DNA of 64,000 bases, taken from Spizellomyces punctatus DAOM BR117. Taxonomy: Eukaryota. Made by a program: the position numbers and the translations under genes. Positions within the stretch are counted from its first letter, which is position 1. Each line of letters begins with the position of its first letter. The stretch lies in the NCBI GenBank assembly GCA_000182565.2, contig KQ257452.1; one strand, written 5' to 3'. Below the pieces are notes generated by a model, which had not been told where the DNA came from, made no database searches, and saw only the letters and a list, made by a program, of their open reading frames with translations. This document shows positions 57,974 through 60,371 of this stretch, in pieces.

Positions 57974-60371
57974 TCAGCTTCTCGCAGATACCGGTCCACC
58001 TGTCGTCGATTTTCTTCTCGACAGGCTTGCACCTTCACCCTCAGCACCCTCCCCAACCCGAATCTCAATTGGCTGTTCGGCAATCTCCTCCACAAACTTT
58101 TCAGCTTGCCTGACTACCGAATTGGCATCCGGGTTCTCCTGCTTCAGGGCAAACAGCAGCATACTTCGTCCTGTGACATCATACCAATGTTCAAAATCAA
58201 ATGTTGGGGCACTAAGTAAAGTCGGCTGATTCGTGTCGACGAACAATTGCCAGTCAACTCCACCAACAGCTGGTGGCAGCTTGAACCTGACAACATCATG
58301 ATGCGAATTCAAGATCAACAGAACTGTAACATCGGTTCCAGGTCGTTTGATTCCCGTCGCTTGGGCGCGACCGTCAAACATGATTCCCAAACACTTGCTG
58401 TTGGGATCGGTCCATGCCTCCATGCTCATCTCGTTACCATCAGGATTGAGCCATGTGACATCCTTCACACCTTCGTCTTCATTCCATTCGCCGGTATACC
58501 ACCTATTTCTGCGCAAAACTGGGAACATTTGCCGTAGCCAGATCACTCGCCGCGTAAACTCCATCAAGCACCGCCCGTCGTCCGTGATGCCCTCCCAATC
58601 AACCCAGTTGATCTCGTTATCTTGACAGTAGGTGTTATTATTTCCATTTTGGGTGCGTCCAAACTCATCGCCAGCGAGGAGCATCGGAGTGCCCTGGGAA
58701 AACATCAAGGTGGCTAGGAAGTTACGCTTTGTACGTTCACGGAGTTGGATTATATTTTGGTCCTCTGTTGGTCCTTCTGCCCCATGGTTCCATGAAGCAT
58801 TGTCATTGGCTCCATCGCGGTTGTCCTCCCCATTCGCCCAGTTATGCTTTTCATTGTAAGAGACGAGATCGTTCAAGCAAAAGCCGTCATGTGCGGTAAT
58901 GAAGTTGACCGAAGCCCAAGGCTTGCGGCCACAGCGATTGAACAAGTCGCCAGAGCCGGTCATTCGGGAAGCGAGCTCGGGAAGCTTCCCCAGATCTCCC
59001 TTCCAATACTCACGCAGGGTATCCCGGTAGCGATCGTTCCATTCGGCCCAACCAGGCGCGAAATGCCCAACTTGGTATCCGCCCAACCCGATATCCCAAG
59101 GTTCTGCAATGAGCTTGGCTTTTGAGAGCACCGGATCTTGACGCACACTGTTCAAAAATGCACCGTTCTCGTTGAAGCCGTAGGCTTCTCTCCCCAAGAT
59201 CGTCGCTAAATCAAATCGGAATCCATCAACATGCATCTCCTCTACCCAATATCGTAAGCTGTCAAGGACCAGCTGAATTACTCGCCCGTGAGTAAGATCG
59301 AACGTATTGCCACATCCAGTGTCGTTAACGTAGTAACGATGGTTCTCGTGGTACATCTTGTAGTACGTCTTGTTATCGATACCTTTGAAGCAGAGAGTTG
59401 GCCCCATTTCGTTCCCCTCAGGTGTGTGGTTGTAGACAACATCAAGAATTACTTCGATTCCGGCGTCATGAAAGCGAGCAACCTTTTGCCAGATGAAGAT
59501 ATGTTAGATACTGTGATGACACTTGAAACGACGGTACCCACCATCTCTTTGAATTCCTCAATTCGATTCGACGCTGAATAACGGGGATCGGGTGCAAAGA
59601 ATCCGATGGAATTATAACCCCAATAATTTACAAGATTGTTATCTAAGAGATATTTGTCGTCAATAAAGAAATGTACAGGTAGGAGCTCGACGGAGGTAAC
59701 GCCAAGAGACTTGATGTACTCGATGATGGCAGAATGTCCTAGCCCGGCATAAGTGCCGCGAAGGTGCTCAGGAACAGCAGGGTGACGTTGGCTGAAGCCC
59801 TTTACATGCGTTTCATCTGTTCAGAAAAGAATTAACGGGAGGGAAAAAGTGCAAGCCGGCGCGACAGCATCCTGTCCTTACAGAAAACTGTTTTCTCCCA
59901 TGGGATCTCCGGCCTTCTTTCTCGACCCCAGGTATACGCCGTATCCACCACGCGACACTTTGGCATGTAAGGTGCGCTGTCGCGTTCGTCATACGACAAA
60001 TCTTTATCGGGATGGCCGATCTGATAGCCAAACAGGGAATCATCCCATACAAGCTCTCCGACGAAAGCTTTTGCATATGGGTCGATCACCAACTTGTTTG
60101 GGTTGAATCGATGGCCGTTATGTGGGTCGTACGGACCATACACACGGTAGCCATAGACTGTTCCGGGCCTTGCATCGGGGAGATAACCGTGCCATACTTC
60201 GTCAGTGTATTCTGGGAGTTCTATGCGGTCGACTTCTGTGGATCCGTCTTCAGAGAAGAGGCAAAGCTCTACCTTTGTTGCATGCACAGAGAAGAGGGCG
60301 AAATTGACACCCAGTCCGTCCCATGTCGCGCCGAGGGGAGTTGGAGACCCTTCCTGTATGCGAAGGGGCAT
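57974..60371 (-). CDS. glgX: Bacterial-type glycogen debranching enzyme GlgX / isoamylase (CBM48 + GH13), 757 aa, 2 introns
   Basis: [105 protein letters not shown]. Removing introns 59817-59881 and 59483-59541 gives a 2274-nt ORF. Confidence 0.96.

Follow-up and report, generated by a model that had tools for sequence, protein, structure and literature searches.

A spliced, bacterial-type glycogen debranching enzyme, GlgX, in the chytrid Spizellomyces punctatus and its probable acquisition by a chytrid ancestor

A stretch of 64,000 nucleotides from contig KQ257452.1 of the chytrid fungus Spizellomyces punctatus DAOM BR117 (assembly GCA_000182565.2), hereafter the window, carries on its minus strand, at positions 57974 to 60371, a gene for a bacterial-type glycogen debranching enzyme, GlgX. 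S. punctatus GlgX is a genuine, expressed nuclear gene, and it was most likely obtained in one acquisition by an ancestor of Spizellomycetales, Rhizophlyctidales and Caulochytrium, a reading that includes a debranching role for the enzyme. The donor would have been a soil alphaproteobacterium of the Rhodospirillales type, and the single transfer into the chytrid ancestor would have been followed by vertical inheritance, adoption of the host base composition and the gain of at least two spliceosomal introns. The existence of the gene is not new, as GenBank already names it GlgX.

Splicing by script of the minus-strand exons 60371-59882, 59816-59542 and 59482-57974 gives an open coding sequence of 2274 nt that encodes 757 amino acids (aa), and the product is letter for letter the GenBank 'glycogen debranching enzyme GlgX' of S. 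punctatus DAOM BR117 (KND03017.1 / XP_016611056.1; P0001). The NCBIfam equivalog TIGR02100 (glgX_debranch) matches this protein at 1077.8 bits against a cut-off of 640.9, from residue 8 to 700 and over profile positions 2-687 of 688; exon 3 by itself reaches 658.7 bits, already above the cut-off, and the same model gives 1069.5 bits for the orthologue from Rhizophlyctis and 1039.2 for that from Caulochytrium. The enterobacterial-type GlgX model NF002983 gives 787.8 bits, below its cut-off of 901, which argues against the E. coli subtype, and the model for the bifunctional GlgX/4-alpha-glucanotransferase, NF011082, gives 712.8 bits against a cut-off of 2511 and aligns to its GlgX half only. A Pfam scan of the protein returned CBM_48 and Alpha-amylase and nothing else, with neither a fused GH77 domain (PF02446) nor the hGDE or GDE_C domains of the GDB1/AGL type, while the C-domain PF21331 (Isoamylase_C) comes from precomputed database annotation and is absent from our own Pfam scans. 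By these profiles the S. punctatus protein is a bacterial-type GlgX, but not of the E. coli subtype. GlgX, TreX and ISA belong to the CAZy subfamily GH13_11; the look-alikes found in the Atlas are bacterial GlgX clusters only, one of which has an automatic label that includes GH13_11.

Solved structures ranked by bits place TreX 2vnc first (764), followed by GlgX 7u39 (747), E. coli GlgX 2wsk (629) and plant ISA1 (446), and with a match at E 1e-228 the fold can be taken as already fixed. The alignment with TreX 2vnc and GlgX 7u39 covers residues 5-676 and conserves all four GH13 regions. D346, E382, D454, H274 and H453 align to identical residues in both structures and are invariant in all 13 aligned chytrid sequences. 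The catalytic roles of D346, E382 and D454 are those that we take to be standard for the GH13 family: D346, in region II, is the predicted nucleophile (codon at 59210..59212, minus strand), E382, in region III, the predicted general acid/base (59102..59104, minus strand), and D454, in region IV and directly preceded by H453, the predicted transition-state stabiliser (58886..58888, minus strand). The N-terminus begins at the same point as that of bacterial GlgX, without extension, and so no signal or transit peptide is predicted. A sequence-only reading of the same DNA had described a 757-aa gene model with GT-AG introns of 65 and 59 nt, an intact CBM48+GH13 enzyme with the full catalytic triad and no obvious signal peptide. 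The splice reproduces that model, including the quoted motifs, and equals the annotated protein; Pfam, TIGR02100 and the structure alignments agree on the intact enzyme; and the colinearity of the N-terminus with bacterial GlgX bears out the lack of a signal peptide.

A search with exon 3, in which 8000 proteins were scored and the best 120 clusters listed, returned four chytrid clusters among these 120, every other named row being bacterial. The cluster of the query itself is followed by three further chytrid clusters, whose representatives, from Thoreauomyces, Gaertneriomyces and Rhizophlyctis rosea, are 78-81% identical to the query, and these in turn by bacterial GlgX proteins at 62-70%, whose named rows are mostly alphaproteobacterial (Arenibaculum, Craurococcus, Roseomonas, Azospirillaceae, Acetobacteraceae and Microvirga). 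The four chytrid clusters hold 16 members, made up of 14 named proteins and two environmental fragments. The named members come from S. punctatus and Spizellomyces 'palustris', from Geranomyces variabilis, with four entries, and G. michiganensis, from Fimicolochytrium jonesii, Thoreauomyces humboldtii and Powellomyces hirtus, from two Gaertneriomyces and from two assemblies of R. rosea. A profile search built from 13 chytrid sequences, again with 8000 proteins scored and the best 120 clusters listed, adds Caulochytrium protostelioides (950 aa, 70% identity, 1408 bits) and places five chytrid clusters at ranks 1-5, above all bacteria, the best of which scores 1359 bits. Besides S. punctatus, the gene is thereby recorded in at least nine further species of Spizellomycetales, in R. 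rosea and in C. protostelioides. Within the content of the database, no eukaryote other than chytrids appears among the best 120 clusters of either search. Orthologues spread broadly across fungi, named by the sequence-only reading as grounds for giving up a transfer, were thus not seen: five of the 120 listed clusters are eukaryotic, and all five are chytrid. S. punctatus GlgX shares 71% identity with GlgX from Arenibaculum pallidiluteum (P0005) over 725 residues with three gaps, a match that includes part of the C-terminal tail.

Three further features of these relatives were observed. A. pallidiluteum has two GlgX paralogues, P0005 and P0035 (the latter being L012), which lie in different subclades, and P0005 alone lies near the chytrids. 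The Caulochytrium orthologue (P0283) has a C-terminal extension of about 190 residues (about 760-950), a low-complexity stretch with abundant Ala, Ser, Gly and Asp. It has no counterpart in the other chytrid or bacterial proteins and could be either an artefact of the gene model or a real addition. Some of the deposited chytrid models also vary at their ends, one from Geranomyces having 55 extra residues at its N-terminus and that from Gaertneriomyces a longer C-terminal end (P0124, P0003), differences that are probably a matter of annotation and not of biology.

A FastTree phylogeny was built from 301 rows, comprising 14 chytrid rows, 79 translated prokaryote loci, 114 of the 116 non-chytrid matches of the exon-3 search and 94 of 150 representatives; two matches shorter than 650 aa, the representatives outside 640-800 aa and the chytrid-cluster fragments P0128 and P0132 were excluded. 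The 14 chytrid rows fall without exception into a single clade (support 100), which lies 13 nodes deep among alphaproteobacterial sequences, and the sister group of this clade consists of Arenibaculum P0005, a protein from a Stellaceae metagenome-assembled genome and four metagenome proteins. A script-based subsample of 64 rows was analysed with IQ-TREE under LG+C20+F+G4, with ultrafast bootstrap and the Shimodaira-Hasegawa-like approximate likelihood ratio test (SH-aLRT). The chytrid clade is recovered at 100/100, with Rhizophlyctis sister to Spizellomycetales and with Powellomycetaceae monophyletic (100/99), in agreement with taxonomy. The nodes that enclose the chytrids are supported at 90/51, 96/91, 99/94, 89/90, 95/97 and 98/100, the last of which joins the chytrids to a wider bacterial subgroup with other GlgX excluded; ultrafast bootstrap reaches 96-99 at three of the enclosing nodes. 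In a quick tree of 51 rows that includes Caulochytrium, its orthologue falls in the chytrid clade (100), where it branches as sister to Rhizophlyctis and Spizellomycetales together (82). The chytrid genes thus clearly belong to an alphaproteobacterial-type GlgX subgroup, and their placement within bacterial GlgX as a whole is secure. The best guess for the precise donor is a soil bacterium resembling Azospirillaceae or Stellaceae. In the two nearest named bacterial loci (L045 and L048) no glg or tre genes stand beside glgX, whose neighbours there encode a sugar phosphotransferase, cysK, metC and ABC transporters.

The gene consists of three exons. Exon 1 (59882..60371, minus strand) starts with the ATG at 60371-60369, encodes residues 1-163, supplies the first base of codon 164 and contains the CBM48 module (residues 12-100, nt 60072-60338, minus strand; PF02922 CBM_48, 71.5 bits). 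Intron 1 (59817..59881, minus strand) is a 65-nt GT..AG intron in phase 1, within the codon for Y164. Exon 2 (59542..59816, minus strand) encodes residues 164-255, the beginning of the GH13 catalytic barrel, and corresponds to TIGR02100 profile positions 160-250. Intron 2 (59483..59541, minus strand) is a 59-nt GT..AG intron in phase 0, between M255 and V256. Exon 3 (57974..59482, minus strand) encodes residues 256-757, with the catalytic core, the C-domain and a tail of about 55 residues that is partly common to the Arenibaculum enzyme, and ends with the TGA stop at 57974-57976. The spliced protein is colinear with the bacterial homologue from Arenibaculum through both exon junctions, and the introns therefore interrupt a once-continuous reading frame.

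Contigs from four public runs, which give no expression levels, were placed on window positions 57800-60600. In run X9, whose contigs are at least 99% identical, a 1214-nt contig omits exactly intron 2 and a 265-nt contig omits exactly intron 1 (59817-59881). In run X1, which sequenced RNA from a root metagenome, a 394-nt contig over 59787-60246 omits intron 1, with one mismatch and one gap, and it seems that a close relative of S. punctatus transcribes GlgX in a root-associated habitat. A contig of run X10 keeps intron 2 unspliced, as genomic DNA would. The contigs of runs X10 and X11 cover parts of the gene only, and none of them bridges to the neighbouring genes. The composition of the gene is that of its surroundings: the GlgX coding sequence has a GC content of 0.505 and a GC content at third codon positions (GC3) of 0.536, 12 other open reading frames (ORFs) of the window with 250 codons or more lie between 0.40 and 0.55 in GC3, and across the glgX ORFs from 79 bacterial loci the median is 0.84 (range 0.605-0.968). 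The S. punctatus gene sits on a contig of 1,895,877 bases, and the contigs that carry the orthologues in other chytrid assemblies measure 39 kb to 1.3 Mb.

The sequence-only reading had proposed a domesticated horizontal gene transfer, and the placement within bacterial GlgX, the patchy distribution, the introns and the host-like composition support it. The proteobacterial look that it noticed was right and is narrowed by the searches and trees to Alphaproteobacteria of the Rhodospirillales type. Its argument that the introns speak against contamination is strengthened by exact splicing in contigs of two runs, and where it had named unspliced introns as a finding that would tell against it, both introns are exactly removed in assembled contigs. 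A failure to link the locus to SGT2/HST2, which it had named as well, is likewise not borne out, the gene being placed by the 1.9-Mb contig among eukaryotic genes. The branching order of the gene tree agrees with chytrid taxonomy, and the gene has fully taken on the base composition of its host. The two environmental fragments P0128 and P0132 show homology that stops exactly at the site of intron 2: the Spizellomycetales-like P0128 starts where exon 3 starts, and the Rhizophlyctis-like P0132 has 16 unrelated residues before that point, which suggests that intron 2 may be older than the split between Spizellomycetales and Rhizophlyctidales. In sections of Amses et al. 2022, a strongly supported clade unites Rhizophydiales, Spizellomycetales, Rhizophlyctidales and Blyttiomyces, and in sections of Ahrendt et al. 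2018, Caulochytrium is grouped with one Chytridiales species and its position is called open. With Caulochytrium outside that clade, one transfer would entail later loss, at least in Rhizophydiales. The single GH13 module of Batrachochytrium, compared with seven in S. punctatus in a carbohydrate-active enzyme table of 2013, is consistent with such a loss in Rhizophydiales.

In the mechanism that we infer for S. punctatus GlgX, including its catalytic activity, substrate, location and physiological role, the enzyme would be a cytosolic protein that acts where fungal glycogen lies. Its N-terminus is colinear with those of cytosolic bacterial enzymes and has no targeting peptide, and so it should stay in the cytosol. 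There it would hydrolyse the alpha-1,6 branch points of phosphorylase-trimmed glycogen by a retaining GH13 mechanism, with D346 as nucleophile, E382 as acid/base and D454 as stabiliser, and its products would be short malto-oligosaccharides. These would be recycled by a 4-alpha-glucanotransferase, either the GH77 enzyme listed for S. punctatus or the transferase domain of GDB1, or would alternatively be degraded by a glucoamylase or an alpha-glucosidase. In passages of Ball et al. 2016, GlgX-type enzymes are described as cutting the alpha-1,6 bond of the short outer chains left by phosphorylase, and MalQ-type enzymes as needed by bacteria for using the malto-oligosaccharides so released. A 2026 preprint (10.64898/2026.09.25.754361) states, in part of its text, that chains freed by an isoamylase could be handled by the transferase domain of the indirect debranching enzyme.

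Of the 103 fungal proteomes surveyed by Zhao et al. 2013 (PMC3652786), a single one, that of a chytrid, contained GH77 (amylomaltase), the natural partner of GlgX. Portions of their supplementary tables, which were made by automated annotation, list one GH77 for S. punctatus and none in five other rows, those of Batrachochytrium, Allomyces, Rhizopus, Neurospora and Saccharomyces; the same portions give S. punctatus seven GH13, four GH15, three GH31 and three GT20, and Batrachochytrium one GH13. The GH15 and GH31 enzymes could likewise break down the oligosaccharides. The GH77 of S. punctatus may be a second acquired gene. Bacterial GlgX is often found fused to its partner. Among the 150 closest representative clusters (P0133-P0282), 32 have at least 1200 aa. 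Eight long bacterial relatives were scanned, of which five are GlgX-GH77 (MalQ) fusions and three carry a second alpha-amylase-family domain, in one case together with DUF3459. The GH77 listing and the GlgX-GH77 fusions suggest that a direct-debranching mechanism would be workable in the chytrid. As a more tentative possibility, a complete bacterial route of glycogen breakdown, made up of GlgX and GH77, might have been rebuilt in the chytrid cytosol, with GDB1 perhaps partly or wholly displaced.

Several points weigh against the reading of a single alphaproteobacterial transfer and a role in debranching. The immediate sister node of the chytrids is weak (90/51 in IQ-TREE). In an approximately unbiased (AU) test on 51 rows, for which the bacterial group was defined after the tree was seen, monophyly of the 40 in-group bacterial rows without the chytrids was not rejected (log-likelihood lower by 20.4, p-AU 0.080), and so nesting in the sampled Rhodospirillales-type crown and the exact donor are not formally secured. 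Given the position of Caulochytrium in the species tree, a single transfer has to be combined with one or more later losses, unless the gene moved from chytrid to chytrid. The GH77 count comes from automated annotation of 2013, and the library kind of run X9, whose contigs behave as cDNA, is unrecorded. The two nearest named bacterial loci, having no glg/tre operon, offer no functional hint and no hint of co-transfer.

Among other explanations, the one that survives best accepts the transfer and gives the enzyme a main job other than breakdown of the cell's own glycogen, either on imported branched dextrins, for example from pollen, or, in the manner of archaeal or actinobacterial TreX, as a supplier of linear chains to a TreY/TreZ-type trehalose route. 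The best solved match is indeed Sulfolobus TreX (764 bits, with E. coli GlgX at 629), three of the eight long bacterial relatives have a second alpha-amylase-family domain in place of GH77, and the seven GH13 modules listed for S. punctatus, against one for Batrachochytrium, indicate that further GH13 partners exist. We consider this explanation unlikely, however, as the protein has no secretion signal and an N-terminus colinear with cytosolic bacterial enzymes, and as treY and treZ are not beside glgX in the nearest named bacterial loci. Moreover, GT20 is the family of trehalose-6-phosphate synthases, and with three listed in the table the usual fungal trehalose route is probably present; chytrids are not known to have an uptake system for branched dextrins. 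In favour of this explanation, S. punctatus is labelled a pollen saprotroph in the part of the Ciach et al. 2024 supplement that covers it. The sequence-only reading had suggested a use on starch from pollen; a protein that lacks a secretion signal is unlikely to act on such starch outside the cell.

According to a second explanation, the enzyme performs isoamylase-like trimming during synthesis, and chytrids store a more ordered, amylopectin-like polyglucan, which we regard as improbable. The bacteria that have this GlgX store glycogen, and the protein is of the GlgX/TreX type and not a plant ISA (446 bits for ISA1, 764 for TreX). The recruitment of prokaryotic isoamylases is tied to transitions from glycogen to starch in the part of the 2026 preprint (10.64898/2026.09.25.754361) that deals with them, but glycogen granules in another chytrid are reported from electron microscopy in a section of Laundon et al. 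2022.

Vertical descent from an ancient eukaryotic gene, for example one of mitochondrial-endosymbiont origin that was lost in nearly all other eukaryotes, would account for the alphaproteobacterial affinity, and the AU test leaves room for it outside the sampled crown (p 0.08). It is nevertheless very improbable, because genes separated since the origin of mitochondria should share far less than the 71% identity, with three gaps, that is seen with a living Rhodospirillales species, the 98/100 node unites the chytrids with this bacterial subgroup and leaves other GlgX outside, and no non-chytrid eukaryote is among the best 120 clusters of either search. In passages of Ball et al. 2016, a bacterial GH13 debrancher is likewise said never to have been seen in opisthokonts, amoebozoa, alveolates or glycogen-storing excavates. 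Bacterial contamination or mis-assembly, for which the bacterial affinity of the protein speaks and nothing more, has a negligible probability and is excluded by two introns exactly spliced in cDNA-like contigs, a host-like GC3, a 1.9-Mb contig with eukaryotic neighbours on the flanks of the gene, and orthologues in independent assemblies of 11 further species.

Compared with known systems, chytrid GlgX shares domain order, length and catalytic residues with the bacterial GlgX of E. coli (2wsk) and Arenibaculum, whereas the chytrid gene is nuclear, has two spliceosomal introns and host-like codons, and stands alone, outside any glg operon. Its best solved relatives are Sulfolobus solfataricus TreX (2vnc) and GlgX 7u39, with which the four GH13 regions are conserved. 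TreX works with TreY/TreZ and has transferase activity, whereas in the two nearest named bacterial loci treY and treZ are not found beside glgX. The plant and algal ISA1-3, which were themselves acquired from bacteria, are likewise bacterial direct debranchers kept by a eukaryote and have the same fold and catalytic triad. They are, however, far more distant (446 bits or less) and stem from a different transfer event and donor, and they are associated with plastids or starch and with amylopectin synthesis, whereas the chytrid enzyme, without a transit peptide, belongs to a host whose storage polymer is glycogen. In basidiomycetes, a bacterial alpha-amylase was reportedly acquired by transfer and later gained introns; that case resembles the present one as a bacterial GH13 gene domesticated in fungi, with introns after transfer, but differs in GH13 subfamily, recipient phylum and activity. 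GDB1/AGL performs the same task, the removal of alpha-1,6 branches from phosphorylase-limit glycogen in the cytosol, with an unrelated architecture, chytrid GlgX being without hGDE/GDE_C domains. According to passages of Ball et al. 2016, GDB1 acts in two steps as transferase and glucosidase and releases glucose, whereas GlgX releases malto-oligosaccharides.

In the view of the field, direct debranching by GlgX or isoamylase is a bacterial mark and indirect debranching by GDB1 a eukaryotic mark. Single metabolic-enzyme transfers into early-diverging fungi are common, and given this and the GenBank annotation the surprise is moderate. No paper that describes GlgX or isoamylase in chytrids or fungi, or this transfer, was found in the literature. 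The horizontal transfer catalogue of Ciach et al. 2024 covers 44 early-diverging fungi, S. punctatus included, and its spreadsheet contains no KND03017, XP_016611056, 'glycogen' or 'CBM48' in the portion available; glycogen, GlgX and GH13 likewise go unmentioned in the main text of a paper from 2026 about gene transfer and osmotrophy. Passages of Ball et al. 2016 call GlgX 'absent in eukaryotes', state that a bacterial GH13 debrancher was 'never seen' in opisthokonts and other non-archaeplastidal glycogen storers, and describe eukaryotes as without cytosolic malto-oligosaccharide metabolism. A conserved, expressed GlgX in three chytrid lineages is a counter-example to its absence from opisthokonts, and if the GH77 listing holds, the absence of cytosolic malto-oligosaccharide metabolism in eukaryotes is also called into question. 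Should the route of GlgX and GH77 prove true, it would be the first opisthokont exception to the rule that direct debranching belongs to bacteria and indirect debranching to eukaryotes. A heterotrophic eukaryote could then fix GlgX without plastid endosymbiosis, which bears on the chlamydial-partner argument for the GlgX of Archaeplastida. The gene also presents a clean, datable case of intron gain following a transfer from bacterium to fungus. Spizellomyces punctatus is genetically transformable, and so the effect of a bacterial debrancher on eukaryotic glycogen is directly testable.

The ordinary fungal surroundings noted earlier from sequence were found again at the locus on the 1.9-Mb contig. 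Downstream of GlgX lies a gene for an SGT2/SGTA-like co-chaperone (56133..57170, minus strand) with TPR and SGTA dimerisation domains, and upstream, in divergent orientation, lies a gene for an HST2-like deacetylase of the Sir2 family (61190..62716, plus strand; PF02146, 155.8 bits), so that both flanks are eukaryotic. Elsewhere in the window, Pfam scans detect RRP5, dynactin, Chs7, PP2C, ODAD1, GST and calpain domains. Pfam matches were obtained in 14 of the 34 long ORFs scanned, every one of them to a eukaryote-type domain, and these scans revealed no further bacterial-looking or glycogen-related gene. The interval from the SGT2-like gene to the 3' end of GlgX contains an 89-codon ORF (57564-57833, plus strand) that has a long hydrophobic stretch and no Pfam match and may either encode a small membrane protein or be non-coding.

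Two observations concern the bacterial part of the GlgX trees. GlgX from a record titled 'Mycobacterium sp. KBS0706' is nearly identical to GlgX from Inquilinus (L028, 8001-10097, and L037, 2407-4506), with end branches of 0.03 and support of 100/100, and the Mycobacterium record, placed among Alphaproteobacteria, looks mislabelled or contaminated. GlgX from Halomonadaceae, which are Gammaproteobacteria, is nested among alphaproteobacterial sequences (L005, L016, L017, L022, L029, L036, L041 and others), which suggests that GlgX may have been transferred between bacterial classes in the same subgroup.

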